From Escherichia coli (GTDB lineage: Bacteria; Pseudomonadota; Gammaproteobacteria; Enterobacterales; Enterobacteriaceae): a stretch of 64,000 nt of DNA. The stretch is taken from the NCBI RefSeq assembly GCF_045037415.1, contig NZ_CP173438.1; one strand, 5' to 3'. The notes under the pieces are model-generated. The model searched no databases and had not been told where the DNA came from. It worked only from the letters and a program-made list of their open reading frames with translations. This document shows positions 13,548 to 35,507 of this stretch, piece by piece (within the stretch, counting starts at the first letter, position 1; every line of letters begins with the position of its first letter). Made by a program: the position numbers and the translations under genes.

Positions 13548-14695
<1,148 letters not shown>

Positions 14696-15928: not shown

Positions 15929-15952
15929 ATAGCCCTCTTATAAAGAGGGTTT
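15929..15952. terminator. Possible bidirectional terminator hairpin between convergent REase and MTase genes
   Basis: CCCTCTTtataAAGAGGG hairpin followed by TTTTAT; overlaps the C5-MTase stop. Confidence 0.3.
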
Positions 15953-18761: not shown

Positions 18762-18999
18762 TAATAATATGGATTATATCATTTAACTTGTGAACACTCA
18801 ACAATAACTGTACATAAAAACAGTCATTAAAGATTTCCCCTAGAGTGAGCATCGCTATAAAAATTTAAATTAATTTTATCCTGCTCCGAAAGAAACAGTT
18901 ATCATTTATTCCATAAAGAATAACTTGCTTTATAATCACTTTAAATATCGATATCAATTTTAATACTATGGTTACTTACCATATCAATAAATAGCTTAA

Positions 19000-19790
19000 C
19001 CCGTTATCTCGATACCCCTTAAGAACCCCTTCCGCAACTGCAACATAATCTACGCTCATCCACATGCCTGGTGCGTATTACCGTGAAGGAGATCGGTGAG
19101 TTATTGAGTGATCTCCTTTCATGAAAATACGCACCTGGCTTTAACTGTTCCTGATATAAGTTGACAGTTTTCTGTCCGTAAAACGGTTGATGAACTTCAT
19201 CGGGCGTTTTGTATTTCAATGCCAAATGTGACCGCTCATGGTTATAAATTGCCACGAATTCTTTTACCATTTACCGGCCCTACGTCAGCTCTGCAGGACG
19301 CGAGAGTAAAAACTCATTTTCAGGATTCCGTTTATCCACTCAGCCTGCGCATTCTGGTGGCAGTTATAACCATTAGTCATTGAACAGGTTATTGATAAAT
19401 AATTAAAAAACTCAGTTTTCTGGCTCGCCTGCTCAAGCTGTTCTTCAAGTTCCCTGATTCTTTGCTCGGGTGTCAGCGGGACAGTCGCCAGAGCCACAGG
19501 CAGTCTCCTCTTTACCTGGTCAGGAAGTCCGGGGCTCCAGTCAAGCCGGCCATATTTACGCAACCAGACAAGAACGGTGGAGCGCCCCTGAATGCCATAA
19601 CTGCAGCCGGCCTGTTTATAAGTCATCTCGCCTTTTTCAACCTTCTCAACAACGGCTATTTTAAAGGATAGAGGATAATCACGTTGAGTGCGTTTGAACC
19701 CAGACATCATCACGTTCTCCGGGTTTAAGTCAGGAACGTGTCATAGCTATTCAGGACGGGTCACCGACACAAAAAAAGTCGCCCTTGAGC
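19000..19790 (-). mobile_element. IS3-family element remnant (internally deleted OrfA/OrfB), boundaries approximate
   Basis: ORF 19285-19713 has OrfA-like HTH (MSGFKRTQRDYPLSFKIAVVEK...) fused to integrase-core C-terminal pieces; 19140-19270 encodes the OrfB C-terminus (...AIYNHERSHLALKYKTPDEV). Confidence 0.55.
19072..19133. mobile_element. 62-bp mini element made of the two IS21-family terminal repeats joined back to back, flanked by 5-bp direct repeat CCTGG
   Basis: 19072-19100 matches the end at 19817-19845; 19101-19133 matches the end at 22364-22396; CCTGG at 19067-19071 and 19134-19138. Confidence 0.6.
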
Positions 19791-19901
19791 GACTCGATTT
19801 GCATACGGTATGGTGCTGCGTATTACCGTGAAGGAGATCGGTGAGTAACATCGATGGAGATCGGTTCGTGTCACTTTCACAGAACCGTTTTTAAATTACC
19901 T

Positions 19902-20651
19902 TCACTGATCTCCTTCGGTCAACGGAGATTGTATTTTCCGCATTGATTCTCCTTTAAGTTCGATCTTGATACTGCCATGAACCAGTCGATCTAGGATGGC
20001 ATCCGCATGTGTGGAGTCTCCGATCATTTTGTACCAGTTTTCCACCGGCAACTGGCTCACTACGATGATTGAGCCTCGTTGGTACATCAGATCCACTATT
20101 TCCAGCAGGTCGCTACGCTGTTCTGATGAGAGAGGTTCCAGCCCCCAGTCATCCAGAAGCAGCAGATCGCTATTATTCAGCCTGGTCAAAAGTTTGCTGT
20201 ATCTTCCATCAGCATGCCCCTGATAGCACTGTTCCATCAGCGCTTTAAGGCGATAATAGTAGACCTTGTATCCCTGTCGGCAGGCATTATGACCAAGTGC
20301 ACATGCCAGGAACGTTTTACCGCTGCCGGTGGCCCCGGTCAGTAAAATATTTTGTTTCAGGGTTAACCAGTTTCCCTGACTGAGTGAACGGATGAGGGCC
20401 CTGTCCAGCCCTCTATTGTTACGATAATCCAGCTTTGATAACTCAGCATTAAGTCTGAACCGTGCATGTTTGATCAGACGCTCTGCCTTCCTGTTTTCAC
20501 GGCAGGTTAGTTCTTCTGCTGTCAGTAATGACAGGCGTTCTTCGAAGCCCAGCTCCTGGTATGTGCCCGGTTGAGCAAGTTGCTTTTTAAGCGCATCACG
20601 GAAGCCGGTGAGTTTAAGTGCGGTCAGTTGTTCGTAAAGATGATTCATCAT
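19902..20651 (-). CDS. istB: IS21-family IstB ATP-binding helper protein
   Basis: 249 aa; Walker A LTGATGSGKTFLA, Walker B LLLLDDWG. Confidence 0.9.
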   Translation of the reverse strand: MMNHLYEQLTALKLTGFRDALKKQLAQPGTYQELGFEERLSLLTAEELTCRENRKAERLIKHARFRLNAELSKLDYRNNRGLDRALIRSLSQGNWLTLKQNILLTGATGSGKTFLACALGHNACRQGYKVYYYRLKALMEQCYQGHADGRYSKLLTRLNNSDLLLLDDWGLEPLSSEQRSDLLEIVDLMYQRGSIIVVSQLPVENWYKMIGDSTHADAILDRLVHGSIKIELKGESMRKIQSPLTEGDQ

Positions 20652-20662
20652 TGGATCCCGTA

Positions 20663-22204
20663 TCAGTGGTAATACTCACTGCCGCGTACGTTTTCGTGTT
20701 CCATCGTGGATAACAGATCTGGTTTTGGATCCTGAACAGGTTGTTTATCCAGACCTTTTTCCAGGATCGATTTAATACCTGACAGACGCCATACCTTTGT
20801 TTTCAGAGCTCTTGCACATGCTGCATTAAGTCTGGCTTTACTGTATTTTTTATGAAGGTTCAGGAGTCCAAGGCAGAAGCGATAGCTTTGTTCCGGATGT
20901 GGACGAGAGTTCAGTATATGAAGCACATAACTATGAGTTTCACTGCCTATGTGCCCCGCCCATTCCAGAAGACGCTCTGGCGTCCAGGTGGCATGCTGTC
21001 GATGAGCTTCAGGCATGTGCTCGTTGCGGGTACTGTAGCCATAAGTACGCTTGCGCGGGTGCACAGCAACCTCCTGCCCCTGATTGAAGAGTCTTACCAG
21101 TTCTCCGGAGATCCATGCTTCCAGTTGCTGGCCTAACAGCGAACATGGAACCGAGTAGTAATGTTTGTCGATTTCCACGTGGTAATCGGCATGAACTCTG
21201 ACTTTCTTCACCAGGGTGTAACTGTAACTGGCTTCAGGAAGAGGCTTCAGTGCGGGTTTATCAAGCTGGATGAAGAGTTCTGCACGTGAATAACCCAACT
21301 TCTGCATTATTTTGTTATTCAGTCTTTCCAGCAACTCCCGAATGCGCTGATTAAGCGATGCAAGGCTGTAGAAGATCTCATGCCTGATTCGGGCCATGAT
21401 CCAGCGTTCAACAACCTGAACGCCAACTTCAGCTTTGGCTTTATCTTTCGGTTTACGTGGCCGCGCAGGCAAAACTGCGACATTATAATGCTCAAGCATC
21501 TGCTGGTAGGTAGGGTTAACGTCAGGATCATACTTACATGCCCTGGATGTGGCGCTTTTCAGATTGTCCGGAACAACAAGTTCAGGAACGCCACCCAACC
21601 ACTGGAAGCAGCGAACATGACTCATCACCCAGTCTTCAAGCTGCTGAGACCAGGTGGCCTCTGCCCATGTGTAACTTGATGCCCCGAGAACAGCTACGAT
21701 GACCTGAGCAGTTCTTATTTCTCCGGTCTCAGGGTCGGTAACGCCAACGGTAGGTCCACAGTAATCAACGAAAAGTTTTTCGCCAGCTTTATGTACCTGA
21801 CGCATTGATGGTGAAGTGGTTTTGAGCCATTCACGGTACATCCGGCAGTAATGGTTATAGCTGTAAAAACCGCCTGGATTACGCTCACAGTATTCTTCCC
21901 AGAGTAGCTGCAGCGTCACGCATTTATTACGCAGTTCCCGGTGTACTGTAGCCCAGTCAGGCAGAGAGTGCTTCTTCATCTTAACCTGGGTCTGAAGGAA
22001 CGCATGTTTTAGTTTTGTATCATCCCATCCTGTAGGTAAGGGCCACTGCTTTATGCCAAGTTGAGCCGCCCGATTAGCATATCTGGATACAACGGAAGGG
22101 GAGATTGCAAGACTACGACCAATTTGTCGATGGCTGAGTCCAACACCGTATTTAAGCCTAAGAATTTCTTTAAGTTTTCTCATAGAAATTGGAACTGTTG
22201 GCAT
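20663..22204 (-). CDS. istA: IS21-family IstA transposase
   Basis: 513 aa; N-terminal HTH plus DDE integrase core. Confidence 0.9.
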   Translation of the reverse strand: MPTVPISMRKLKEILRLKYGVGLSHRQIGRSLAISPSVVSRYANRAAQLGIKQWPLPTGWDDTKLKHAFLQTQVKMKKHSLPDWATVHRELRNKCVTLQLLWEEYCERNPGGFYSYNHYCRMYREWLKTTSPSMRQVHKAGEKLFVDYCGPTVGVTDPETGEIRTAQVIVAVLGASSYTWAEATWSQQLEDWVMSHVRCFQWLGGVPELVVPDNLKSATSRACKYDPDVNPTYQQMLEHYNVAVLPARPRKPKDKAKAEVGVQVVERWIMARIRHEIFYSLASLNQRIRELLERLNNKIMQKLGYSRAELFIQLDKPALKPLPEASYSYTLVKKVRVHADYHVEIDKHYYSVPCSLLGQQLEAWISGELVRLFNQGQEVAVHPRKRTYGYSTRNEHMPEAHRQHATWTPERLLEWAGHIGSETHSYVLHILNSRPHPEQSYRFCLGLLNLHKKYSKARLNAACARALKTKVWRLSGIKSILEKGLDKQPVQDPKPDLLSTMEHENVRGSEYYH

Positions 22205-22917
22205 AGGTATCCTTTACCGGAATGGCAAAAGATACAGATCAACACACCTGTGAAGTTCCAATAACATTGATGGAGATCACTGAATAACAAAATGAGTCAA
22301 AAGTGATCTCCATCGATGTTATTCAGCGATCTGTTCAAATGTTATTACCCGATCTCGATGGAAGTTATTGAGTGATCTCCTTTCATGAAAATACGCAGGT
22401 GCGAAGGCCGGACTCAAACATGCGATTTAACCTCATGATTTAAAATTGTTAATAATAAACAACACCATCCTATACCAACACAGATACCAACACGAAAAAT
22501 CACTGGTTTTCGGCATCGAACCAGGACAATCAGGTCCTGATTGAGATACCGAGCTCTGTTACTCGTCATCTTCCTCGACAGGCTCCATTGCATCAAGTGG
22601 TACTCGCACCATCGCGATAGAACCAATCCGGATAAAAGCATCTTCCCCATCTATATCGGTTAACTGATATCGCTTACTTGATGCCGGATAATTGTGTCGA
22701 TTGGCAACAGTGTACTCTTTCGTACAGCCAGAATGTGGCAGACTGAGGTGGAATAGATAACGTCCGTATGCCCGCTGACCACCTCCGGGCGGGAGAGTGT
22801 GGTATCTGACATCATCATTTTTCCTTTCTGTTTATAAATGAAAATGCCAGCCGTGTTCAGGCTGACGTCAGGGAAGTGAAATCGGGTGAGTGATCTTCAC
22901 TGGTTCTGGTACAAAAG

Positions 22918-23094
22918 TTACTGTTGGCGCAGGGTACGGATACCCTCCCTGGCCTGTGCGATACAGGGCAACAGTGCTGCCGAATCTGTTTTATCCTCAT
23001 CGTTGTCGAAGATAATTCCCGATTCGCAGTCGATATTGTCCTGCAGCCACGTAATCAGAATATCCAGCGCTGTTTCCGTGGTTAATGATTTCAT
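22918..23094 (-). CDS. Small hypothetical protein (DUF957-like, 58 aa)
   Basis: ATG at 23094 (MKSLTTETALDILITWLQDNIDCE...); position downstream of yeeW-like gene as in CP4-type islands. Confidence 0.4.
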   Translation of the reverse strand: MKSLTTETALDILITWLQDNIDCESGIIFDNDEDKTDSAALLPCIAQAREGIRTLRQQ

Positions 23095-23110
23095 GTTGTG
23101 AATTTCCGGA

Positions 23111-23599
23111 TTACCAGTCGAAAGTGGGTAAACCCGGCAGATATCCGGCACTGGCATCCAGATGAATGAGACTGACACCATAACACCGGATGAGTGTGAC
23201 GACCAGACGACGGAACGTTTTTGACAGCCCCAGGCGCTTAAGCCGCAGAACCGGGTATGACCACGTATCGGTACGTAACAGATAACCGGTACCGGTAAAA
23301 TGAATCCATTCTGATTCACCGAAGTCACTGGTCTGGTGTGACAGCGAGTACAGCCAGGCGTTGTCCGTTTCCGTGATATGTGCGGTACTGCAGCGTATGC
23401 CGGTAAGGGCAACAAATGGTGGCGTGCAGTCTGCTGAGGTCCGGTCAGATTCATCAACAACACGAAGGGAGTAGCCGTTATCGCAGACCATGTTAATCAG
23501 TTCAGCGAGATTAACACCATCAATGTCAACGACAATGCGCCCCATGTTCAGCGCCTGCACGTTAACGCTGTCGGCTTCCAGCGTCAGGGCCAGTTTCAT
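23111..23599 (-). CDS. YeeW-like hypothetical protein
   Basis: 162-aa ORF overlapping the cbtA stop by 4 bp; conserved position after cbtA. Confidence 0.55.
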
Positions 23600-23973
23600 C
23601 GTTTCGCCTCCGGATGCTTCCCCAGGGTAATGTTATTTACCGTTCTGTAATTGTCGCGGATCATCAGGCCTGTTGCCCGGCGAGCCCGGAGGATATCGAT
23701 GCTGTTTATTAACTGAGAGTGGGTACAGGCGCTGAATCCCGGCAGGTCGGTACGTACCAGTGCGTATTTTTCCACGAGAAAGTTCACTGCATCACACAGT
23801 GAAATGCCTGCCTCAATATGCTGCTCAATCACACGTTCATCAGCGAACGGTGTGTCATTCAGCGTAAGGCCGTAGTGCTGGTCCAGCAGTCGGGTGAGCA
23901 GTGTCTGCCAGATGGTGACTGGAGACGGGCAGCACGATACCTCCCGTACATGCGTGTCGGGTAATGTTTTCAT
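23596..23973 (-). CDS. cbtA: CbtA/YeeV-family toxin (type IV TA, cytoskeleton inhibitor)
   Basis: 125 aa; ...[48 protein letters not shown]... matches recalled YeeV/CbtA. Confidence 0.85.
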
Positions 23974-24062
23974 ACTGAAGATTTTCCTGATATGCAGAGA
24001 TAAAAAATGGGACAGTGGCGTGGTGAAAACACCAGGCCGGAGCAGAAGGTTATTCTGGTGGT

Positions 24063-24431
24063 TTACTTTTTCGTTTCAGGTGTCGGATAAACAGCCAGAT
24101 AAACGTAACCACAGGAGCCGAGGGTGTCGGCTTCACAGGTCAGCCCCTTCGCATACAGTGTCACGGTATGCTGATGGCGGGGATTCAGTTCACCACTGGT
24201 GAGCATTAATTTCAGTTGTTTCATCAGCAGCGGAAAGGCCTGGTCCAGAGGGTACGCATCCGCATCTCTGAACCGGCCTCTGATACCGGCACGGTCGGCA
24301 AGGTAATGCAACCGGTTACCCTCCTGCACCAGACGGGCGCCGAAACAGGGCGTCACTGTGCAGGGTAGTCCCCACCAGGGATGGTCGTCATTGTCATCGG
24401 GATGCGTTGTCCCGGAAAGTGTGTCTGACAC
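24063..24431 (-). CDS. cbeA: CbeA/YeeU-family antitoxin (GTG start)
   Basis: [50 protein letters not shown]... matches recalled YeeU; immediately upstream of cbtA. Confidence 0.8.
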
Positions 24432-24593
24432 GATAAAATCCTCACAGAAAATCGGTGAATGATAGTTTAACGATGACGGGTCAGCCGGCGCGCAGACCGG
24501 CTTCGGTAAAGGTGTATTCGTTGATGAGCAGGACCTCATCCACAGCGGCGTCTGAGCTCTGCCAGTCGTACTCGTTTTCCGGGTGACGGAACA

Positions 24594-24815
24594 TCAGTTC
24601 AGGGTGACGCTCATCAGCCGGACATACGGACCAAAACTGTCCTTACGGCGTTCTGCAAACACGGCCAGCACACCGGGAATATCCTGCACTTCACGACCGG
24701 TATACGCTTCAGCACTGCCGTGCCAGCGGTATTTGCCGGTACAGAACGGAAAAAGACGGGATGCCGGATGCTGACGGTGAATACGCATGGCTTCGCCACG
24801 GGTGATGATTTTCAT
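24594..24815 (-). CDS. yeeT: YeeT-like DUF987 protein
   Basis: 73 aa MKIITRGEAMRIHRQHPASRLFPFCTGKYRWHGSAEAY... Confidence 0.75.
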   Translation of the reverse strand: MKIITRGEAMRIHRQHPASRLFPFCTGKYRWHGSAEAYTGREVQDIPGVLAVFAERRKDSFGPYVRLMSVTLN

Positions 24816-24877
24816 AGTGGGATACCTCTGAAGACAGAAGATAAAAGTGAAAACAGGTGTGATGTGGTTGTGACGGG

Positions 24878-25354
24878 TTAAAGCAGACCATATTCGGCAA
24901 AGGAGAAAACCTGGCTGCCACCGACTATCAGATGGTCCGGCACCCGGATATCCACCAGGCCCAGTGCCTGTACCAGACGTTCCGTGATAAGGCGGTCTGC
25001 CTTGCTGGGTGTGACTTCACCGGACGGGTGATTGTGTGCCAGCACCACAGCAGCGGCATTGTGATACAGGGCGCGTTTAATCACTTCCCGGGGATGGACT
25101 TCCGTGCGGTTGATGGTGCCGGTGAAGAGGGTTTCACCGGCAATCAGCTGATTCTGGTTGTTCAGATACAGCACCCGGAACTCTTCACGCTCCAGTCCCG
25201 CCATGTTCAGAATCAGCCATTCTCGTGCCGCACGGGTGGAGGTGAAGGCCACGCCGGGTTCATGAAGATGGCGGTCCAGGGTTTTCAGGGCCCGTTGAAT
25301 GAGGCTGCGCTCGCCGGGCGTCATCTCTCCGGGCAGAAAGGAAAGCTGTTGCAT
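24878..25354 (-). CDS. yeeS: RadC-like JAB-domain protein (YeeS/YkfG/YfjY family)
   Basis: JAMM-like motif HNHPSGEVTPSKAD; conserved CP4-island position. Confidence 0.8.
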   Translation of the reverse strand: MQQLSFLPGEMTPGERSLIQRALKTLDRHLHEPGVAFTSTRAAREWLILNMAGLEREEFRVLYLNNQNQLIAGETLFTGTINRTEVHPREVIKRALYHNAAAVVLAHNHPSGEVTPSKADRLITERLVQALGLVDIRVPDHLIVGGSQVFSFAEYGLL

Positions 25355-25369
25355 TGTACTTCTCTCCAT

Positions 25370-25843
25370 TCAGTCGATGATGCGCATAATGGCGCTGCAT
25401 TCCGGATGCTGCAGGGCGTAATCCCGCAGCCGGTAATAATGGACCGTCATGGCATAACACTCCGTACGACAGGCATGATGACTGTACGTCATCAGACAGG
25501 CAGCAATGCCGGCGGCTTCCGGGCTCATTTCAGCGCGGTTACCGTTCATGGCATTGAACAGTACCCATGTTTCGTCATCATCGTCATCCGGTTCGGGTGC
25601 CATAAATGCCCCGCCGTTGTTCAGGGTGTACAGATTCCAGATACCACCGCAGTAGTCTTCACACAGACGGTCCATCCAGCCGAAGATACGGGGCTCCAGG
25701 GTCACCCACTGTGGAATGAGGCCAAAGTGCTGCGGCCAGAAGCTGATGCGCCGTTCATCAGGGACGGGAGTGGCTACCAGTTTTTGCAGGTCAGTCTCCG
25801 GTGCACAGGCCGAAGAGGTGGTGTTCTGAGACAATGTTTTCAT
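25370..25843 (-). CDS. Antirestriction protein (ArdB/KlcA-like, YfjX/YafX family)
   Basis: ATG at 25843; MKTLSQNTTSS...FGLIPQWVTLEPRIFGWMDRLCEDYCGGIWNLYTLNNGGAFMAP... Confidence 0.8.
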   Translation of the reverse strand: MKTLSQNTTSSACAPETDLQKLVATPVPDERRISFWPQHFGLIPQWVTLEPRIFGWMDRLCEDYCGGIWNLYTLNNGGAFMAPEPDDDDDETWVLFNAMNGNRAEMSPEAAGIAACLMTYSHHACRTECYAMTVHYYRLRDYALQHPECSAIMRIID

Positions 25844-26184
25844 GTATGAAATCCTTGTAATGTGAATAAATGAGAGGGAGTAAAGGTCGGGAGCTGGCAA
25901 CATCACGTTCATCACTGACCGTGATGACCCGGTAATATCAGGGATGAATGATATTCGGCTGAAATTCCGGACAGCCGTACGCGTAACCGTTCCGGTCACA
26001 GACGGATGGCCAGATGCCATTGCCTGTATACTCAGTCTGCACAGACTGATTTCTCCGGGACGGTAAAGCAGACGGGTACACCAGGCGCACAGGTCATCAT
26101 CAGAAATGGAACGACACCCCGGCAGCGCCTCCGGGGCGTCGGGTGATTCTGGTGCCTGAATCACGCCTTCAGGGACATGCTGCA

Positions 26185-27003
26185 TCAGCGCAGGCTCTCC
26201 AGCAGCGTTTCTGCCATTACCCACAATGCGCGGTTGAGCTTAATATCGGTGTCGATGTTGTGAATGGCACGGGTGTGGATACGTTTTCCTTTTGCACTGC
26301 GGCCGGAAATTCCGCCTTTCAGCATATTCTCCTGGATGGTCTGATATGCGCTCCACAGGTCTTTACCGTAATCCTCCCGGCGTCGTGGTGTCAGAATGTC
26401 AGCGGTGGTGACTGGCTGATGTTCGTCACCATAACGGTAAGTCAGTGCCGCCTGTGCCAGCGCCTGGCGTGTCGGTGGCGGCAGGACCAGCGACTGCATG
26501 GCATCACGCTTTTCCTCAATCCGGTCAAACACGCCCACCACCTCGTAAGCCCCTTCAATGACTCTGTCCACCACATTTCCCCGATGCGGAACACGCACTT
26601 CCCCCGGAGACTGACCACAGACGCATCCGTTCTGACAGACGAACCTGAAGTAACCCGGCAGCATCTGGTAGCTGGAGGTACCGTCATGGGAGTTGAGCAG
26701 AATGATTTCAGGGACATGTTCTCCGTTTATCTCTCCGGCCCGCCGCAGACGCAGCATGTGTTTTGTGTATCCCCGGCGGCCCGGGTCGCGCACACGGGTC
26801 TGGCAGGCGAAGAATGGCTGAAAGCCTTCCCGCTGCAGGCTTTCCAGTACGGTGATGGTGGGAATGTACGCATATCGTTTACTGCGGGAAGTATGCCGGT
26901 CTTCACCGAAAATACTGGGAACATAGTGCATCAGTTCTTCGTGTGTCAGCGGACGGTCACGGCGTATCTGGTTCGTATAACCAAAACGACTGGCTAGTCG
27001 CAT
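26185..27003 (-). CDS. DUF932-family protein (YafZ/YfjQ-like)
   Basis: 272-aa ORF in the conserved position between Ag43 and the antirestriction gene. Confidence 0.7.
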   Translation of the reverse strand: MRLASRFGYTNQIRRDRPLTHEELMHYVPSIFGEDRHTSRSKRYAYIPTITVLESLQREGFQPFFACQTRVRDPGRRGYTKHMLRLRRAGEINGEHVPEIILLNSHDGTSSYQMLPGYFRFVCQNGCVCGQSPGEVRVPHRGNVVDRVIEGAYEVVGVFDRIEEKRDAMQSLVLPPPTRQALAQAALTYRYGDEHQPVTTADILTPRRREDYGKDLWSAYQTIQENMLKGGISGRSAKGKRIHTRAIHNIDTDIKLNRALWVMAETLLESLR

Positions 27004-27157
27004 AATTTGCTCCTTATCGGTGGTTAAGATTTACTGGTGTAATAAATGAAAAAGCCACGTCTCCCGGAGAAGACGCGGCCTGACAGATGAAATGAATGAC
27101 GTTTATTGTCTGAGAAGCCCTTAACTGGCGAGCTGAGTATTAAGCTGTGTTCCGGCA

Positions 27158-27352
27158 TCACCAGCGCAACTGACCTTCAGCATTACGGATAACCAGCCGG
27201 GAATATGTTCCCTGGTCATCTTCAGTAAACACATTGCGGTAAGCTGTTTTGACGGCAACAGCCTGTTCGCGTGAGAAAGGGCCTTCGGGCAATAAACGTG
27301 ATGTACAACCCGGCATATCTGTTGCTCCCTGAAAGTAAAAAGCCCCGGTCAT
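27158..27352 (-). CDS. Small hypothetical protein (DUF905-like)
   Basis: 64-aa ORF between flu and the DUF932 gene; family assignment uncertain. Confidence 0.35.
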
Positions 27353-27363
27353 GATGACCGGGG
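27336..27363 (-). terminator. Rho-independent terminator downstream of flu
   Basis: GCCCCGGTCATcATGACCGGGGC hairpin followed on the minus strand by TTTTT. Confidence 0.55.
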
Positions 27364-27386
27364 CCTGAAGGAGAGTGACCTGATTA

Positions 27387-30233
27387 TCAGAAAGTCACAT
27401 TCAGCGTGGCCTGACCGTTATAACCTTCAGCGCTGCTGCCGCTGACGCTGTGGGCATAACCGCCCTGAACGCCCAGGGTGATATTTTCCCGGATACGGGC
27501 TTCCAGTCCGGCCTGCAGGTCCAGTGACGTGCCATTCCGGGACGGTGAGAACGTCATGTTACTGCCGGCTGCGGCTGTCCCCATGCTCATGTCACCCCGG
27601 GAGCTGAAGGTGCGGATAACAGAAGGCTGTACCCACCAGTTCACCGGCAGTTCACTCACACTGTGTTTTGCACTGTCGCGCAGGGTGTCACGGGATGAGG
27701 TGCCTTCACCAAAGCTCATATCGTTGTGGCTGCCCAGACGGAAACCGGCACGCACATGTTGTGCACTGCCATGCCCGAACTTCACATAACCGGCGTTATC
27801 CTGGCCGTCATCCAGGGAGAGTCCCTGCCAGGTGTACTGCAGTTGTGGCTCCAGCATCAGATTGTCAGTGATACTGAAGGGCAGACCGGTTTCCAGTGAG
27901 CCCAGCCAGCCCCAGCCCCGGGCGCGGAAGTCGTTATTGTCCGATGACGCTTTCATGCTGTGACGGGTTCCCTGGGCCACAATGTCAGCCCACAGGCCGG
28001 AGGATGTGTGTACCAGATTCAGGTATCCGCCCAGACTGCCGGCATCATCCCGGACCGTGCCGGCGCGGGAGCCGTCATCATCCTTAACATCAACGGAAGA
28101 ATGGCCTGCGGCACCATACACCCCTGTCGTCAGAGACATACCGGCAACCTCTGTTCTGAGCAGGTCACCCTCCAGACGGACGAAGCCATAGCTGCCGCTG
28201 CTTTCCGGCGTGGCTCCACGGGCAATACCGCCGTTGTTATCGTGACCGAGATGACCGCCCTGAATGCTGAGACGGACGCTGTTATTTTCACCGTTTACAC
28301 CGGTCTGATGGCTGCGGGAGCCTGCCAGAATCCGGTCATAGTCCATTGCCTGTGTCAGCATGGATGTATACAGGGGGACTTCAGCACGATAAGCATTTTC
28401 ACTGCGCAGGTACCAGTCTTCATCGCTGTCACGGTTCAGGGTGTAGTTAAAGGCGCCGGCCTGAAGCGGGCGACTCAGGGCAAACGCACCTTCTTCTGTG
28501 GTGGCGCCATTCTGTGCATCCACAACCCGGATACCCTGTCCGGAGGTTGCCACCCCAAGGTTACTGTTTCCGACATTTGTAAACGCAAGCCAGGTTTTGC
28601 CGGTTGCCTGACCACCATTAATCACCAGCTGGTCAGAGGTATTGCTGCCATCAAGGCGAACACGCATATTGATGGTGCCACCCTGACCGGTGAGGTTACT
28701 GGTGGTCAGTTTATGGAACGTTACCGGGGAGTCGCCTTTTGCAACAGCACGGCTCAGCGCGGCATCCGGTGTCGTCTGATTATCAAAGCGAATCTCCCCT
28801 GCGTTAACAATATCGCCGGTACTGACCACATCACCATTCAGTACCATGCTGGCACCTTTACTGAGCTGTGTTCTGCCACTCAGATTTCCCCCGGCAGCCA
28901 GCGTCAGTGTTCCACGATGTCCGACAGTGGTGTTGCCAGCCTGTCCTCCGGCATTAACCGTAAAGCTGCCGCCATTTTCCAGCAGCAGGCCGCTGGCCTG
29001 ACCGGAGATACCATCAATACTGAACTTACCGCTGGCATTGGTCCCCTCAACAGTGGCACCACTGTCTGCTATCAGGGCACCACCGGATGTCATGGTGACA
29101 TCTGTTGCCTTACCACCGGCAGACACTGCCAGGATACCGCCGTCATCCACCAGGGTATTCTGCGCTGAATGGCCTTCCAGTACATCCAGGCGACCACCGG
29201 ACTCCAGAACAACACCGTCAGCATTACCGTTTTCCACAGTGAAATTGCCCAGACGGTTGCTGCCGGTGACGGTTGCCGCCGTACTGGTGACCAGTGCGCC
29301 TCCCTGCTTCAGGGTGACATTCGTGGCTGTACCACCGGCGTTCACCTGCAGTTTGCCTTTCTGGTTAACGGTGGTGAAATCCGCCAGACCACCTTCCTTG
29401 ACAATCTGCCAGCCGTCACTGTTTACAACCGTGTCAGAGGCTGTGCCTCCGTTGTGCACATACTGGTAACCGCCATTCAGTGTGGTATCCAGCGCATGCC
29501 CGTGTACCGTCTGGTCGCCGCCGGCATAAACCACAGTGGTATTTGCTGTTCCTTCAGCAGCCACAATCTGACGACCATTTTTATTGATGGTGGTACGTAC
29601 GGCATTTCCGCGAACAAACTGCCCGGTATCACCATTGTCTGCATCTGGTCCCCCTTCCGCGCCGGTATTCACAACCGTGTCGGTTGCCATTGCGCCGGAT
29701 TTGACGGCCTGCCAGCCCTTCTCATTAATGACGGTACCCGTTGCAATCCCGCCTTCATGTACCCACTGCTCACCGCCGTTCAGAGTGGTATTCACTGCCT
29801 GCCCCTGAAGGCTCTGTCCTCCTCCGGCACTGATAACCGTGTCTGAAACGCTTCCTCCGGCATTCACTCTCTGAAGACCACCACCGGTGACAGTAGTGTT
29901 GTTGGCGATACCGCCATTTTGTATCCATTGTCCGCCGGTATTGGCCTCGTTATCCGGCCCATACTCCAGCCCGGTACTGATGGTCATTCCGTTGGCCGTA
30001 CCGAGGACAATCTGGTTGTCATGATTTGTCAGTGTTCCGTCGTTCACGGTTTCTCCCGCCTGTACAACCGTGTCAGCAGCCAGTGCCGGGACTGATGTGA
30101 CAGCAGCAAGAGACAGTGCAACCGCCACACCGGCGCGTTTTCCCCGTGAGCGGGCCAGTTCGGAGGCCACCACCAGGGTGCCCGTAATGTGATTCCATAC
30201 CAGCCTGTAGCTGGTGTTCAGATGTCGTTTCAT
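27387..30233 (-). CDS. flu: Antigen 43 (AIDA-I-type self-associating autotransporter adhesin)
   Basis: ATG at 30233 ([18 protein letters not shown]...), extended signal peptide, repetitive beta-helix passenger, C-terminal beta-barrel ending ...ATLNVTF. Confidence 0.9.
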
Positions 30234-30444
30234 CAGCTTTTCCTTACAGAGGGTGAATAAAAAAGCCGGTACCCACAAAAGTGGATACCGGCAGGTACAA
30301 AACAGCATGGTCAGATAAAGTGGTTTTTCCCGGACATAAATGCTTCCCCTCTCTCATCCGCCAGAGAAGTATCAGTCCGTTGTGTGCAATTCCGTTCTGC
30401 ATGATGAAGAGATTCAGCTGCCTTTTCGCAGACCATTAACCACT

Positions 30445-30490
30445 ATAAACGATCGATGGTAACGATCGATACCTGTTTTATCGATCGTTT
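30445..30490 (-). promoter_or_regulatory. flu (agn43) phase-variation switch region with three clustered GATC (Dam) sites
   Basis: GATC at 30451-30454, 30464-30467 and 30483-30486 upstream of the flu start. Confidence 0.55.
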
Positions 30491-30580
30491 TATTCTATTA
30501 ACAGCAGAGCAGTCACGCAAGAGAAACAGGAGGGGGATGGAGTGTTTGTATCATGTTTTCAGTTGGTTAACGCAATGTAA

Positions 30581-31477
30581 TCAGGCATTTCCCCTGGCAG
30601 AGTGTTCAGAAGAAAATCCAGTTCCATACAGCGCGGGCAACAGAGACCACCGTGTCACGGACGGCACGCAGAACCGTGCGTGCAACAGAGGCAATACAGA
30701 CGCTCTCCGCCGTGTCAAATATCCGGTCCACCGCACCGGTAAACTGTTCACGGGCCTGAACCGGACAGATTCCGTGCGCAGCTCGTCCTGCAGGCGGGTC
30801 ATCAGGGGACTGGCGGCATGGTCGGGAAGTGCTGTCATGAGCGCACTGACCAGCGTATCCAGTTCCCAGCCGGTGCGGGCCGATACGGCCACAACCGGAT
30901 GTACGGGCCGGAACAGACGGAATACCGCCTCCGTTTTCTCCCGAATGTTCTGTGCCTGTGCGGGAGAAGGCTGAATGCCGGCCATATCCCATTCATGGCA
31001 GGGCTCCGTTTTGTCGGCCTGCGTCACCACAAACAGCACCTGCTGATGTCCCCGGTGCAGGATGTGTCGCCAGAAATACTCATCCACAGACAGGGCACGG
31101 TCATCGGCTTTAATCAGCCACAGTACCAGGTCAAGTTCAGGCAGAATGTCACGGTACAGGGCTTCATACTCTGCATCCCTGTTCCGGCTCTCGCCCACCC
31201 CGGGCAGGTCAGTGATAACCATGCTGTGACCATGGCCACTCAGACGGAAGCGCCGTACTTCCCGGGTGCCGGCGTGAACATCACTGACCGGGGTGACCTC
31301 CCCCTGAAACAGTGCATTACAGAGTGAGGATTTACCGGCCCCGCTTTTACCCATAATGCCAATCACGGGTTCGTGACTGGTGAGTTTGCGCAGATGTTCC
31401 AGGATGTGACGGGAAAGCGAGTAAGGCAGGGAGGAGAGCGGTTTTTCAATTGCCTCAATGGCATCAGACGGATTCAT
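30581..31477 (-). CDS. yeeP: YeeP/YkfA/YfjP-family GTPase, probable C-terminal frameshift near 30770-30780
   Basis: G1 motif GIMGKSGAGKSS, G3 DLPGVG; the conserved C-terminus (...QAREQFTGAVDRIFDTAESV...) is in another frame (ORF 30606-30992). Confidence 0.7.
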   Translation of the reverse strand: MNPSDAIEAIEKPLSSLPYSLSRHILEHLRKLTSHEPVIGIMGKSGAGKSSLCNALFQGEVTPVSDVHAGTREVRRFRLSGHGHSMVITDLPGVGESRNRDAEYEALYRDILPELDLVLWLIKADDRALSVDEYFWRHILHRGHQQVLFVVTQADKTEPCHEWDMAGIQPSPAQAQNIREKTEAVFRLFRPVHPVVAVSARTGWELDTLVSALMTALPDHAASPLMTRLQDELRTESVRFRPVNSLPVRWTGYLTRRRASVLPLLHARFCVPSVTRWSLLPALYGTGFSSEHSARGNA

Positions 31478-31561
31478 ACATGTATTCCCGGTGAAAAAAG
31501 ACAAAACCCCCGCACACCGGAAAGGTGGCGGGGGACTCACGGAGATAATATATGTCTGAAA

Positions 31562-32479
31562 TTATCTGGAATGTCGGTACCTTTTATACTCTTCAACAAT
31601 CAGGTCATGCAGCATTTCGCCGGTACTGAGTCTTCTGACCCTCGATAATTCTTTGAGCTGCGCCCTGGTTTCTGCGTCAAGAAAAAACTGTACATTGACT
31701 TTATCTTCCTGCATTTTTTTGTACTTGCGCTGCGCCTTGGCCTTATTGAAACTGTTTCTGAAATTTTTTATATCGTCAGGTGAGGTGAGTGGACAGGTAA
31801 CCCATATGTCAAATGAAAGGTGGATTGCGTGGTAAATATCAGCAGAACCAGGAAAACTGGCCAGTTTTTCCAGTGCAATATTTTTTCCCTTCAAATAATT
31901 CCATGTCCATATGCATTCATGTTCGTTCTCCGGGAGGAGGTAACTGAAAGGACTCTTTGATTTAAATGCCCGTATCCATCTGTCTTTGGTCTGGATTATC
32001 CACTCATCCCGCAAATTCTTATCAGAAAGAATATCGAGAACTCTGAGTATTTGTCTGAACTGTGTCGATGAGTCCGACGGGAAGGCATTCCCTTCCAGAT
32101 ACTCTTCTTTAAGATACAGTTTATTCTTTTGAAGCAAGTCTGCGCTTATTTTTGCCCTGTTATTCTGGATAAACTGCATCAACAGATACCAGGAAAATAA
32201 GCATGCGCGTTCACTGCCCGCGATCCAGGATATTTTTTCCAGGGGGACCAGGAAGGCCAGGGCCTTCAGACGCATACCAGAAATTATTTGTTCAAGTTCA
32301 AAATCTGAAAGTGTGATGTTCAGATTTTCTCTGTTTTTTTTTATGTAAGCGATAAAACGTTCCGGGGGATCATAAACATTAAGGGGCAGTACGGAGATAT
32401 TACGCTCTCCAAGATAATAAGAGTAATACGCATTTGTTCTTTCATTCATAACCTTATCCGACAAAATTTTCTGAACCAT
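31562..32479 (-). CDS. Hypothetical protein (305 aa) with C-terminal ribbon-helix-helix-like segment; AT-rich
   Basis: Long uninterrupted ORF; C-terminus VNVQFFLDAETRAQLKELSRVRRLSTGEMLHDLIVEEY; no recognised family. Confidence 0.6.
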   Translation of the reverse strand: MVQKILSDKVMNERTNAYYSYYLGERNISVLPLNVYDPPERFIAYIKKNRENLNITLSDFELEQIISGMRLKALAFLVPLEKISWIAGSERACLFSWYLLMQFIQNNRAKISADLLQKNKLYLKEEYLEGNAFPSDSSTQFRQILRVLDILSDKNLRDEWIIQTKDRWIRAFKSKSPFSYLLPENEHECIWTWNYLKGKNIALEKLASFPGSADIYHAIHLSFDIWVTCPLTSPDDIKNFRNSFNKAKAQRKYKKMQEDKVNVQFFLDAETRAQLKELSRVRRLSTGEMLHDLIVEEYKRYRHSR

Positions 32480-33679: not shown

Positions 33680-34297
33680 TCAGTTGCGGTTATCGTCAAC
33701 CGTTGTGCGGTATGCCAGGAGCACGTACTGATCCATCAGATCCGTCAGTGCTGCGCTCTGCCTCTGACGGTTGATGATCCATTCCTCCAGCTCTTTTTCT
33801 GATTTCCGTTTCAGGTTCTCTTTCCAGTCTTCAAGGCTGTTTCCGGTCATTAAATCAAGCCAGCAAAGCCAGACCAGTTTGAGGCGCAACTCCGTGCCAC
33901 CAAACTGACGGAAGAGGCTAATCAGTTTATTTGCCAGAGAACGCTGCCTCAGACGTTCACATTCAGACAGGAGAATGCCTTCCAGCATCGGATGATGAAC
34001 CAGCAGATGTTCACTGGTGCATAAATTCACTATCAGATCATCATCCAGGGGCGGCGTGGCCCGTTTGTCAGGGCCATAAATCAGCCGGTGCAGGCTCTGG
34101 GGTACGATGGCAATCTCCGGTTTTTCACCATTGAATGACACCCACCCGGGCGTCAGATTATGGAAGTAGTAGATATTCGGATGACACACGCCCCAGGATA
34201 CGGCGTGCCGGGTGAAGCCGGTCAGCCATTTCTGGTAGCTTTCGTGGAGCAGTTCGTAACGGGTCTGATACTGTTGTTTCATTTTCATATTCCTCAC
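33680..34297 (-). CDS. Hypothetical protein (205 aa) downstream of alpA
   Basis: ORF only; no recognised motifs. Confidence 0.45.
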   Translation of the reverse strand: MRNMKMKQQYQTRYELLHESYQKWLTGFTRHAVSWGVCHPNIYYFHNLTPGWVSFNGEKPEIAIVPQSLHRLIYGPDKRATPPLDDDLIVNLCTSEHLLVHHPMLEGILLSECERLRQRSLANKLISLFRQFGGTELRLKLVWLCWLDLMTGNSLEDWKENLKRKSEKELEEWIINRQRQSAALTDLMDQYVLLAYRTTVDDNRN

Positions 34298-34377
34298 GGG
34301 GGATATAACAGGCAGCAGAATGCCGCCGGCAGGCCGGGGATTACGTCTGCTGCGGGTGAACGGATAACGGTCAGAAA

Positions 34378-34584
34378 TTACGGGCGGGGCTGTGCAATAC
34401 GCGCCTGTAGCCAGGCTTCCACTTCACTTTTCAGCCAGCGGGAGCTGCGGCCCAGCTTGATGGGAGCCGGAAAGGCCCCATCCCTGATGAGCCTGTAAAA
34501 CCACTTATCTGTCAGGCCGTTCAGTTGAGTGATAAATGCCATGTCGACCATCTGGTCATCCATCAGTGAAACTGGGGTGGTCAT
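34378..34584 (-). CDS. alpA: AlpA-family prophage transcriptional regulator
   Basis: ATG at 34584; ...FITQLNGLTDKWFYRLIRDGAFPAPIKLGRSSRWLKSEVEAWLQARI typical of AlpA. Confidence 0.8.
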   Translation of the reverse strand: MTTPVSLMDDQMVDMAFITQLNGLTDKWFYRLIRDGAFPAPIKLGRSSRWLKSEVEAWLQARIAQPRP

Positions 34585-35309
34585 GAGAATGTTCCTCCGG
34601 ATGTTGTTAATCTCAACCGGCGTTGGTGATGAAAACAACGCACCACCTTCACCGGCATAACAACCGGGGAGAAACGTAAAAAATAATCGGGAATGTGACC
34701 GTCAGGAGATAAACGGGGGGATTGCGGTGGCTGAGCCGTACCGGTATGTCGGGTGGTTGTTGCGAAACGATGCTTCCGCACGCGCACGCGATAAAGGAGG
34801 GAGGACTTTCGTGAGACAAGGGGAAAACTAGCGTTCTGATAATTGCAGAGTTGTTTTTGAAGGCGGTTGTGGTATATCAGCCTGTGACCTGTGGGCAGGC
34901 GACAGTTATCACTGGTGGGATAAGACTGTCTGATTGGTATTATAAATATATAAGAGAGATCAAACACATGAGATCAAATACATGAGTTCATATATGTGAA
35001 ATAAACACTGTGAGTGCGATCAGTGGGCATGAGAACGCAGTAGCAGCAGATTGCGTTGTACCCACAGGGCTATCTCTGATAGCTGGCGTATAACCTGCGT
35101 ATATAAAACGTACCTGCAACACACGTGAACAGAGTGCATTAAGCATCCGTCTGAGCGGTAAACGTATCCGACCTGGTGAGTGACAGTCTGAGAGACCGGT
35201 TAAGTGGTGGCACGGGAGTAATGAGTTTGGGGAGGGTACCAGAATGCCAGGCTGGTGCGGTATGCTGACAGCATCCTGTTAACCGCAGCATAAAGTAATG
35301 AGAGGCTAA

Positions 35310-35507
35310 TGGAAGTTAAAACCACAGCAGTTCCGTCGTTGTTCATCCCGGGAGACGCTGGAAAAAGTGATTTCCCACACGCGTTATAAACTTACCCCTG
35401 CGGAGCTGGAAGCCTTTAACTCTGCCGTTGACAACCGGCTGGCAGAACTGACAATGAACAAACTTTACGATCGCGTGCCGGCTTCCGTCTGGAAATATGT
35501 CACCTGA
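35310..35507 (+). pseudogene. Hha/YmoA-family regulator homolog lacking an in-frame start (likely N-terminal frameshift)
   Basis: Frame gives ...RRCSSRETLEKVISHTRYKLTPAELEAFNSAVDNRLAELTMNKLYDRVPASVWKYVT*; an ATG at 35309 is in the +1 frame. Confidence 0.4.

Follow-up and report, generated by a model that had tools for sequence, protein, structure and literature searches.

The closest K-12 relative of the gene module analyzed here is CP4-44, a cryptic element at the cobU-tmaR locus of Escherichia coli K-12 with the order yeeP-isrC-flu-yeeR-yeeS-yeeT-cbeA-cbtA-yeeW. The CP4-57 and CP4-6 elements of the same strain share a core order (GTPase, DUF932, antirestriction, RadC-like, DUF987, antitoxin and toxin genes) with the module, to which their proteins are 52-82% identical. 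However, they are more distant paralogues that lack Ag43 and carry other cargo between the DUF932 and antirestriction genes. Each also has an intact integrase of its own, at ssrA for CP4-57 and at thrW for CP4-6, and in CP4-57 the AlpA and YfjJ genes lie near the integrase. Another described system is the satellite phage P4, whose integration site is the tRNA-Leu gene leuX. Finally, ST131 strains carry a 79.1-kb island, GI-leuX, that includes genes for EcoMI and McrBC (PMC3203889, PMC4134206, PMC4659465).

The window, which is the 64-kb stretch of E. coli DNA analyzed here, is approximately 100% identical to ST131 chromosomes and falls within the published GI-leuX. Specifically, the order yjhF/yjhU, McrBC-like genes, EcoMI (Eco31I-type) restriction-modification (RM) system, module and fecIRABCDE is the same as in GI-leuX of ST131 strain EC958 and the KpLE2 family, again at approximately 100% identity. 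Two strain-level differences from EC958 are apparent: ISEc12 lies in the att junction described below rather than 599 bp away, and ISEc52 sits inside the Eco31I-type endonuclease gene.

Within the window, positions 22918-31540 very probably represent the distal conserved core of a CP4-44-type cryptic, P4-like island that integrated at leuX through site-specific recombination of the P4 type and has since become immobile. A CP4-44-type core at leuX is already known, and it is an ordinary component of E. coli islands. The module is found in 5073 of 5426 complete genomes, its core gene order is kept across Enterobacterales, and the CP4-type backbone occupies a median of three places per genome, recurring at other loci that include cobU-tmaR.

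Gene content of the conserved core

An earlier note on this DNA had listed GTPase, Ag43, DUF932, antirestriction, RadC-like, YeeT, CbeA/CbtA and YeeW-like genes in this span and had assigned them to a CP4-type conserved core. All of these genes are present on the minus strand, and every family assignment held in profile searches. The collinear set that runs from the GTPase through Ag43 with its IsrC leader to the RadC-like, DUF987, CbeA, CbtA and YeeW genes is that of a CP4-44-type core. The comparison with CP4-44, CP4-6 and CP4-57 that the note had proposed gives the same core order in each case, with CP4-44 nearest in both order and identity. Missing from that list were a truncated DUF905 gene, the IsrC/IS102 RNA and a gene annotated as DUF957. 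Moreover, the limits 22918 and 31540 hold only as limits of open reading frames, being the stop of the DUF957-annotated gene and the GTG of the longest GTPase reading frame. The roles given below for the module proteins are predicted from homology.

The first gene of the span is a YeeP/YfjP/YkfA-family GTPase of 290 amino acids (30581-31453, minus strand; PF01926 (MMR_HSR1), 55 bits), whose translation contains the P-loop GKSGAGKS and the motif DLPG. It is 99% identical to the yeeP pseudogene fragment of K-12 and 52% identical to YfjP/YkfA. A weak 30-bit match to the LeoBC defence component reflects P-loop similarity only, and we rejected this assignment.

Ag43 is known to mediate autoaggregation and to be turned ON or OFF by Dam methylation versus OxyR binding at three GATC sites. 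The Ag43/Cah autotransporter adhesin gene (27387-30233, minus strand) appears to be intact. Its 948-residue product matches positions 1-948 of 948 of NF033177 at 1994 bits (cut-off 1200 bits), and has the ESPR, AIDA-repeat, autochaperone (AC_1) and beta-barrel (Autotransporter) domains of a type Va architecture. Upstream lies the IsrC/IS102 leader RNA of agn43 (30252-30488, minus strand), which scores 68.1 bits with the Rfam covariance model RF00124 (gathering score 46 bits). An Rfam E-value search of 18.7-38.3 kb returned no structured RNA other than IsrC. A hairpin at 30265-30292, within the IsrC region, directly precedes the agn43 start. The GATC sites of the Dam/OxyR switch lie at 30451, 30464 and 30483, and OxyR binding is predicted there. 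Their spacing of 19 and 13 nucleotides is the same as in K-12 flu, such that CP4-44 and this module have in common both the position of IsrC upstream of agn43 and the geometry of the switch.

Beyond Ag43, the module departs from CP4-44 in that a DUF905 remnant, a DUF932 gene and an ArdB gene occupy the place held by yeeR in K-12. An alignment with an intact homologue reveals a 20-bp deletion that truncates the DUF905 gene (27158-27352, minus strand). Its match to PF06006 is confined to profile positions 2-46 of 70, and RefSeq annotates the gene as frameshifted. The DUF932 protein of the YfjQ/YafZ family (26185-27003, minus strand; PF06067, 176 bits) is 74% identical to YfjQ and YafZ, and has relatives at least 70% identical across Enterobacterales. 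The ArdB/KlcA-like antirestriction gene claimed in the earlier note (25370-25843, minus strand) is borne out by its PF03230 domain (127 bits), by a 208-bit match to the PHROG 'anti-restriction protein', and by near identity of its product to the solved ArdB structure 2WJ9 (E 2e-108), with KlcA 2KMG matching at E 1e-19. Its product is predicted to relieve restriction; members of the ArdB family block type I restriction upon entry to a new host.

Next is a RadC-like JAB protein of the YeeS/LfgB family (24878-25354, minus strand; PF04002, 150 bits) that is 98.6% identical to YeeS and 77% identical to LfgB/YfjY. It retains an intact JAMM motif, HNHPSGEVTPSKAD, and may act as a protease, as does its homologue LfgB, the protease of CP4-57. 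The DUF987 protein that follows (24594-24815, minus strand; PF06174, 137 bits) is 97% identical to YeeT.

CbtA and CbeA form a type IV toxin-antitoxin system that acts on FtsZ and MreB filaments; in such a system the toxin blocks the polymerization of FtsZ and MreB, and the antitoxin opposes this effect with no binding between the two proteins. As previously proposed, such a pair is present. The CbeA/YeeU-family antitoxin gene (24063-24431; PF06154, 179 bits) lies upstream of the CbtA-family toxin gene (23596-23973; PF06755, 207 bits), with both on the minus strand and 89 bp apart. The antitoxin is 89% identical to K-12 CbeA and matches the solved YeeU structures 2INW and 2H28 at E 1e-74, whereas the toxin is 87% identical to K-12 CbtA. 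By analogy with such systems, the pair likely stabilizes the island.

The last genes are a DUF5983 gene and the extra DUF957-annotated gene that distinguishes this module from CP4-44. The DUF5983 protein (23111-23599, minus strand; PF25638, 108 bits; PF19419, 74 bits) is a full-length YeeW-type protein of 162 amino acids, 71% identical to the truncated YeeW of K-12. Thus, both the GTPase and YeeW/DUF5983 are full-length here and truncated in CP4-44. Overall, five proteins are 87-99% identical to their CP4-44 counterparts, and Ag43 is 74% identical to Flu. The 58-residue DUF957 product (22918-23094, minus strand) carries its name from RefSeq annotation alone, with no Pfam or NCBIfam match even at E 10 and no PHROG match. 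Nevertheless, the gene is kept after DUF5983 in other genera at 59-91% identity. Beyond it, in the tail of the element, are two gene fragments (22559-22812, minus strand), one a helix-turn-helix regulator without its N-terminus and the other a hypothetical gene without its C-terminus. Neither has a Pfam match, and RefSeq lists both as pseudogenes in identical sequence.

The att junction and the neighbouring restriction genes

The earlier note had described the module as bounded on one side by IS21 and had seen no tRNA. An istA/istB element does sit 520 bp to the left of the span. This is ISEc12 of the IS21 family (19817-22397, minus strand; 2581 bp; istA 20663-22204, istB 19902-20651), with ends TGCGTATT and AATACGCA and a 5-bp target duplication, GGTGC. 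ARAGORN finds no intact tRNA gene in the window, but part of the 3´ end of leuX remains, interrupted by ISEc12. To the left, TGGTGC (19811-19816, minus strand), which reads GCACCA, the tRNA-Leu 3´ end, in reverse complement, forms the left part of a P4-type att core. It adjoins the native downstream flank of leuX (19766-19811), including a terminator-like hairpin and T-run (19771-19794, minus strand; AAAAAAAGTCGCCCTTGAGCGACT, the reverse complement of the stem followed by the T-run). Together, 68 nucleotides of tRNA fragment and flank match the leuX 3´ end and downstream flank of the island-free strain A25 at 92.8%. To the right (22398-22421, minus strand) are the duplicated GGTGC (22398-22402), the rest of the core, GAAGGCCGGACTC (22403-22415), and P4-arm-like AAACAT (22416-22421).

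When ISEc12, whose target duplication falls within the core, is removed, 19 of 20 bases are those of the P4 attP core, TGGTGCCGAAGGCCGGACTC, the missing base being a C. Past the core, the sequence continues as in P4 (AAACAT) and not as in leuX (GAACCG). The junction is in direct orientation relative to leuX, whose 3´ end it matches in a 14/14 seed that extends into the flank, and there is no other leuX-like match of 14 nucleotides or more. This arrangement, a P4-type core at a tRNA 3´ end flanked by a P4-like arm and, opposite it, by native leuX sequence, is that of a P4-family element at its junction with the chromosome. Judging from these bases, the true distal boundary of the module is this P4-type att junction, split by ISEc12. 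CP4-44 of K-12 offers no counterpart to this preserved junction.

ISEc12 itself is a late secondary insertion, given its 5-bp target duplication and its three different places in three related genomes: the att junction here, 599 bp away in ST131 NZ_CP103710.1, and inside DUF5983 in strain MLI106K1. The same evidence rules out IS21 as the module boundary. This split form of the junction is shared by 62 complete genomes.

The earlier note had also placed the antirestriction gene in the same island as the RM and McrBC systems. This is correct insofar as all of them belong to GI-leuX as published (PMC3203889, PMC4659465), but the Eco31I-type RM and McrBC genes are on the far side of the att junction from the module. 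Where these genes lie, other strains have type II Zorya along with other systems, or else a type I RM system. They form part of a distinct defence hotspot, variable in content and located downstream of leuX, and we rejected the idea that they are part of the same integrating unit, since they lie beyond the junction and are swapped for other defence genes elsewhere.

Could the block nonetheless serve a conjugative or mobilizable element as an anti-defence cassette resembling a leading region, in which ArdB, the RadC-like protein and the DUF932 protein are expressed early after single-strand entry and are functionally tied to the adjoining RM and McrBC systems? ArdB/KlcA and RadC-like genes are indeed typical of the leading regions of plasmids and ICEs, and the cassette does adjoin restriction systems. 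However, the annotation of the whole island includes no gene for a relaxase, a coupling protein or type IV secretion, and the restriction genes are the exchangeable occupants of a position beyond the junction. In addition, the systems next to the cassette are of type IIS and type IV, and to our knowledge ArdB activity is documented against type I systems (from the 2WJ9 and KlcA work) and not against these types. We consider this reading very improbable, and because the restriction genes form a separate variable hotspot, no functional link with ArdB is to be assumed. Antirestriction modules are mentioned in PMC5512222.

Backbone, integrase and mobility

On the other side, the backbone reaches past the span to AlpA/Vis, Hha, YfjJ-like and two zinc-ribbon genes, ending at approximately 38.1 kb. 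AlpA, which the earlier note had placed about 3 kb further on, is annotated at 34378-34584 on the minus strand, approximately 2.9 kb beyond the span, and its reading frame extends to 34638 with a TTG start. This P4 Vis-like helix-turn-helix regulator (PF05930, 32 bits) is 37% identical over 84 amino acids to P4 ORF88 (E 1.6e-12). Variable cargo had been proposed as the boundary of the module on this side. This holds for a 305-residue protein (31562-32479, minus strand) that has no Pfam, NCBIfam, PADLOC or PHROG match and only 21-24% matches in other genera; its slot holds YfjI in another CP4-44 copy. It does not hold for a 205-residue protein (33680-34297, minus strand), likewise without a match in Pfam, NCBIfam, PADLOC or PHROGs, whose 58-61% identical copies adjoin AlpA in Salmonella, Hafnia, Lelliottia, Photorhabdus and Serratia.

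On the plus strand are a short Hha/YmoA-family gene (35367-35507; PF05321, 68 bits, profile 16-57 of 57), a YagK/YfjJ-family gene (36237-36806; PF11726, 162 bits; 'inovirus Gp2 family' in RefSeq) whose product is 36-40% identical to YfjJ and YagK, and two overlapping DUF7828 and zinc-ribbon genes (37066-37889; PF25165, PF11682). The zinc-ribbon pair closes the backbone ahead of an IS66 element, and both genes recur in this order in strain Z226-7, within its CP4-44, and in strain MLI106K1, within its leuX island. Z226-7 carries a fuller CP4-44 at the K-12 locus, with the same backbone including the AlpA, Hha, YfjJ and zinc-ribbon end, and no integrase. The CP4-44 at the K-12 locus likewise lacks an integrase.

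The backbone thus begins with AlpA/Vis and its partner of about 200 residues, with the Hha, YfjJ-like and two zinc-ribbon genes diverging on the other strand. Leftwards on the minus strand follow the variable slot, the GTPase, Ag43 with its IsrC leader, the broken DUF905 gene, and the DUF932, ArdB, RadC-like JAB, DUF987, CbeA, CbtA, DUF5983 and DUF957 genes. It ends at a recombinant att junction composed of native leuX flank, att core and P4-like arm, approximately 500 bp past DUF957.

The absence of an integrase reported in the earlier note was confirmed, with none in the window, and the annotation of a near-identical genome likewise shows none in the corresponding stretch. The search of the adjacent genome that it had recommended located a truncated P4-like integrase at leuX in near-identical ST131 genomes. 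This remnant, approximately 14 kb beyond the window, comprises 149 N-terminal residues only, and no functional P4-family tyrosine integrase beside the tRNA gene was found there. In MLI106K1, the same island lies between an intact leuX integrase and the same junction, 48.6 kb apart, and that integrase is 59% identical to P4 Int along its entire length. We infer, from position only, that the cognate integrase of the module is the P4-family enzyme at the leuX-proximal end, approximately 56 kb from the junction. Excision would not be expected from an integrase cut to 149 residues and an att core that is missing one base and split by ISEc12.

The island from leuX to the att junction is a mosaic with many IS elements (IS66, IS1, IS3, IS600), which raises the possibility that the backbone was brought in by recombination or IS-mediated events rather than as part of the original integrating unit. 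The orientation of AlpA relative to the GTPase, unlike that in most other genera, points to a past rearrangement. A related alternative is that the module is an independent small integrative or mobilizable element, with its own integrase and att sites lost or unseen, that inserted later into a KpLE2-like leuX island with fec. AlpA, YfjJ and the zinc-ribbon genes make up a self-contained backbone that recurs at other loci and is cut on the right by IS66, and in K-12 KpLE2 fec adjoins yjhU with the module absent. However, no second att-like repeat flanks the segment, with only IS-derived repeats in 18.7-39 kb, and the sole att junction is of the leuX/P4 type and lies exactly at the distal end of the module. 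Evidence against this account, which we judge unlikely, also comes from MLI106K1, in which the island has this architecture and the leuX integrase is intact.

The resemblance to P4 extends to the leuX integration site, the 19 of 20 core bases plus arm bases, the P4-like integrase of relatives, the Vis/ORF88 homologue and a strong avoidance of GATC in both. These features would suit a still-functional satellite, helper-dependent and capsid-hijacking, rather than a decayed island. Yet among 13 P4 proteins searched by tblastn against the 64 kb, only ORF88/Vis has a match; alpha primase-helicase, sid, delta, psu, epsilon, cI and int are absent, and with them the replication, immunity and capsid-size functions of P4. 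The integrase is truncated in ST131, and the att core is damaged and split. Furthermore, the 56-kb island is five times the length of P4, carries metabolic, iron-uptake and adhesin cargo, and would far exceed the capsid capacity suggested by the 11.6-kb P4 genome. A functional satellite is largely refuted and barely credible, leaving a decayed CP4-44-type island as the preferred reading.

A GATC desert around a Dam-controlled switch

A stretch of 8.6 kb (23659-32222) contains no GATC (Dam) sites apart from the three that make up the Ag43 Dam/OxyR switch. Synonymous-codon shuffles predict approximately 19.6 GATC sites where one is observed, and control genes are not depleted, which rules out amino-acid or codon content as the cause. 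The depletion is common to the cores of many Enterobacterales genera whose proteins are just 55-75% identical. Nor is it a by-product of Ag43 alone, since it is present in cores without Ag43 in E. albertii and other genera, and the CP4-6 and CP4-57 cores of K-12 and phage P4 are also GATC-poor. It is possible, though we advance this only tentatively and think it somewhat doubtful, that selection keeps the conserved CP4-type core almost GATC-free. Our literature search found no paper describing GATC depletion for CP4-type cores; PMC4659465 comments only in general terms on stretches free of GATC in the mobile elements of ST131.

The finding of the module itself adds nothing new, as it is a textbook component of E. 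coli islands and this copy lies in the published GI-leuX of ST131. What the present analysis contributes is the true limit of the element, fixed at a P4-type att junction, together with a dead integrase that makes this copy a fixed chromosomal passenger. It also draws attention to a conserved GATC desert that surrounds a switch under Dam control. If selection does maintain this desert, then the module may still pass through a phage-like, under-methylated phase during which MutH, SeqA or GATC-specific nucleases would be harmful. Alternatively, the desert might insulate the epigenetic switch, or might lower mismatch repair locally.

A CP4-44-type core within GI-leuX of ST131

The CP4-44-like gene block at 22918-31540, which lies entirely on the minus strand, confirms the earlier observation and supports its interpretation. 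Every family name assigned in the earlier note from the sequence alone is upheld by Pfam and NCBIfam, well over curated cut-offs. Specifically, the GTPase is of the MMR_HSR1 type with P-loop and DLPG motifs, and the intact Ag43 reading frame matches the Ag43/Cah equivalog NF033177 over its full length (1994 bits against a cut-off of 1200). The antirestriction protein belongs to the ArdB/KlcA family (Antirestrict PF03230); its matches include ArdB, in the solved structure 2WJ9 (E 2e-108), and KlcA (E 1e-19). Profiles likewise identify DUF932, a RadC-like JAB protein whose JAMM motif is intact, DUF987, the CbtA toxin, the CbeA antitoxin (which also matches YeeU structures) and DUF5983, the YeeW family.

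Three features had been overlooked: the agn43 leader RNA IsrC/IS102 (Rfam, 68 bits against a gathering score of 46), a DUF905 gene shortened by a 20-bp deletion, and a 58-aa gene after DUF5983 that is annotated as DUF957 in RefSeq and has zero profile matches here. The agn43 leader carries three GATC sites (30451, 30464 and 30483) with 19- and 13-nt spacing equal to that of K-12 flu. A hairpin directly precedes the agn43 start codon, and terminator-like hairpins follow agn43, DUF905, DUF932 and DUF957.

Judging from their families, Ag43 would undergo Dam/OxyR phase variation and cause autoaggregation, CbtA/CbeA would act on the cytoskeleton and stabilise the island, and ArdB would shield incoming DNA from type I restriction. 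The JAB protein would act as a protease; LfgB, its CP4-57 homologue, is reported to cleave the antitoxin MqsA (PMC10846083).

Proteins of the module were compared with those of K-12 CP4-44, CP4-57 and CP4-6, of which CP4-44 is the nearest (YeeP fragment 99% identical, YeeS 98.6%, YeeT 97%, CbeA 89%, CbtA 87%, Flu 74%, YeeW 71%). However, K-12 CP4-44 lacks DUF932 and ArdB counterparts, and yeeR occupies that place, whereas CP4-57 and CP4-6 hold homologues of both at 67-75% identity. The fuller CP4-44 of strain Z226-7, located at the K-12 locus between cobU and tmaR and likewise devoid of an integrase, has exactly the same backbone as the window. One strand carries two zinc-ribbon genes, a YfjJ-like gene and Hha; the other carries AlpA, a 200-aa gene, a variable slot, GTPase, agn43, DUF905, DUF932, ArdB, YeeS, YeeT, YeeU, CbtA and YeeW. 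The slot holds YfjI in Z226-7, but a 305-aa gene product in the window. This match extends the CP4-44-type backbone of the window from ~22.4 kb to ~38.1 kb, such that the span first proposed contains the module genes but is narrower than the element's backbone. The segment from AlpA to the zinc-ribbon genes is itself multi-copy in E. coli. Gene order in the module is kept across Escherichia, Salmonella, Citrobacter, Enterobacter, Yersinia, Hafnia, Serratia, Photorhabdus and others, and DUF932 is at least 70% identical among these Enterobacterales genera.

AlpA and its 200-aa partner (33680-34638) point towards the GTPase-DUF932 block in E. coli (the window and Z226-7 CP4-44) and away from it in most other genera (loci L012-L087), which suggests an inversion in the E. 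coli lineage. This partner, a 205-aa protein (33680-34297), is kept beside AlpA in many genera at 58-61% identity. Neither this protein nor the 305-aa protein (31562-32479), whose C-terminus resembles a ribbon-helix-helix by eye only, has a family match in Pfam, NCBIfam, PADLOC or PHROGs.

Many E. coli ST131 chromosomes contain the 11 kb surrounding the module at 100% identity, and 5073 of 5426 complete E. coli genomes carry parts of this stretch. Aligned with the ST131 chromosome NZ_CP103710.1, the window is collinear throughout at 99.98-100%, except for two relocated insertion sequences. It begins with yjhF, yjhU and sugar genes, followed by McrB/McrC-family genes, an Eco31I-type type IIS restriction-modification system and an IS21 element. 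The module comes next, then AlpA, Hha, YfjJ-like and zinc-ribbon genes, then IS66, a phytase-like gene and IS remnants, and finally fecIRABCDE. This arrangement is that of GI-leuX as described for ST131 strain EC958, an island of 79.1 kb whose EcoMI (Eco31I) and McrBC genes have already been characterised (PMC3203889, PMC4134206, PMC4659465). The object is already known: it is a CP4-44-type core within GI-leuX of ST131.

A P4-type junction at the leuX flank

The IS21 element had been taken as the boundary of the module, a reading that the data contradict. This element is ISEc12 (19817-22397), with perfect ends and a 5-bp target duplication, GGTGC. NZ_CP103710.1 has it 599 bp further left, with uninterrupted sequence at the position where the window's copy is inserted, and strain MLI106K1 has it within DUF5983. 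The target duplication and the differing positions among relatives mark ISEc12 as a recent passenger rather than a limit. The window's ISEc12 junction is common to 62 complete genomes. A 62-bp miniature ISEc12 derivative, with left and right ends fused (TGCGTATT...AATACGCA) and its own 5-bp target duplication CCTGG, lies at 19072-19133 within a decayed IS3-family transposase remnant (19019-19713).

Read without the insertion sequence, the border consists of the native downstream flank and terminator of the tRNA-Leu gene leuX (19766-19811), then TGGTGC-GAAGGCCGGACTC, then AAACAT. With leuX +/-60 nt as the query, this junction is the sole match of at least 14 nt in the window, and it is in direct orientation relative to leuX. 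A 68-nt stretch comprising the flank and 24 nt of the tRNA 3' end matches leuX and its native surroundings in strain A25, where this site is free of any island, at 92.8%. The attP core of satellite phage P4 is TGGTGCCGAAGGCCGGACTC, followed by AAACAT. The window holds 19 of the 20 core bases, and the bases past the core are those of P4 (AAACAT) rather than those of leuX (GAACCG). This junction, ~500 bp past the last module gene, has the form expected of recombination between attB in leuX and a P4-type attP.

The presumed cognate integrase lies outside the window. In near-identical genomes, leuX is found ~14 kb past the window's right end, adjoined by an integrase pseudogene reduced to its N-terminal 149 residues, which share 52% identity with P4 Int. 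The same island in MLI106K1 covers the 48.6 kb from leuX to this junction, in the order integrase, nanXY, fec, IS66, zinc-ribbon genes, YfjJ, Hha, AlpA and module; the integrase there is intact and shares 59% identity with P4 Int from end to end. AlpA has a P4 homologue in ORF88/Vis (37% over 84 aa). Since the remaining P4 proteins all lack matches in the 64-kb window, the element is a P4-family island without any satellite functions, and in ST131 without its recombinase too.

Defence genes beyond the junction

The part of the window left of the native leuX flank contains the decayed IS3-family transposase, the Eco31I-type system and McrBC-like genes. The same place in MLI106K1 holds a type II Zorya system, a phosphorothioate-dependent endonuclease, a large helicase system and other defence genes, and in A25 a type I hsd system directly follows leuX, plus McrB. 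These differences assign the restriction genes to a variable defence hotspot downstream of leuX and set them apart from the unit with which ArdB arrived. The proposal that ArdB shares an island with the restriction-modification and McrBC genes is thus correct for the published GI-leuX, but those genes lie past the att junction and are replaced in MLI106K1 and A25. ArdB is not known to have any link to type IIS or type IV systems. The variable region occupies 18762-19816 and extends leftwards (corresponding loci L006 1-8821 and L007 1-13316).

An IS3-family ISEc52 copy (13518-14767) interrupts the Eco31I-type (EcoMI) endonuclease gene, splitting it into 12933-13520 and 14843-15925, despite which both methyltransferase genes (15938-18761) are intact. 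In NZ_CP103710.1, ISEc52 lies 5.5 kb from this position and the endonuclease gene is uninterrupted; the ISEc52-endonuclease junction is present in 17 complete genomes. The system is probably methylation-only in the sublineage with this insertion.

A GATC desert in the core

GATC occurs 215 times in the window, but is absent from 23659-30451 (6792 bp) and, after the three switch sites, again until 32222. The result is an 8.6-kb desert (23659-32222) whose sole Dam sites are those of the Ag43 Dam/OxyR switch. At the density of the remaining window (190 per 50 kb), the first gap alone should contain ~26 sites. A Markov model predicts 36.9 sites in 22918-32479, where six are observed; no other palindromic tetramer in that span comes close to such depletion (O/E 0.16 for GATC, versus 0.86, not depleted, in the remaining window). 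Synonymous codon shuffles within each gene from CbtA through GTPase give ~19.6 expected sites against one observed; the same shuffles reveal no depletion in eleven control genes elsewhere in the window.

One alternative explanation is that the desert insulates the Ag43 switch. In K-12 and Z226-7, flu and yeeS-yeeW also lack GATC, and the inserted yeeR/IrmA cargo has normal density. Multi-kb deserts are found as well in E. albertii, Salmonella diarizonae, Lelliottia, Hafnia and Citrobacter, cores without Ag43 among them. Three-GATC clusters sit just upstream of GATC-free cores in E. albertii (locus L010, 4876-4907; spacing 18 and 13 nt) and Lelliottia (locus L058, 8421-8466), and may represent switches of the Dam/OxyR type that control other genes than Ag43.

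In a set of 55 compact cores running from DUF932 to CbtA, taken from different species, no palindromic tetramer is more depleted than GATC (O/E 0.48, versus 0.73 in flanks), and 47 of the 55 have a lower GATC value than the DNA on either side of them, although these loci are related and the counts not independent. Even so, at 55-75% protein identity, synonymous sites should long ago have regained GATC by chance. Reduced mismatch repair is another alternative explanation. In the literature searched, we found no description of a GATC desert specific to CP4-type cores beyond the general remark that GATC-free regions of at least 1 kb are enriched in ST131 mobile elements (PMC4659465).

Phage P4 itself has 14 GATC sites against 40.5 expected, and a 6.4-kb desert. 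McClelland in 1985 and Deschavanne and Radman in 1991 are said to have described counter-selection of GATC in enterobacterial phage DNA. The simplest reading of the desert is such counter-selection, either inherited by P4-derived elements or still acting on them.
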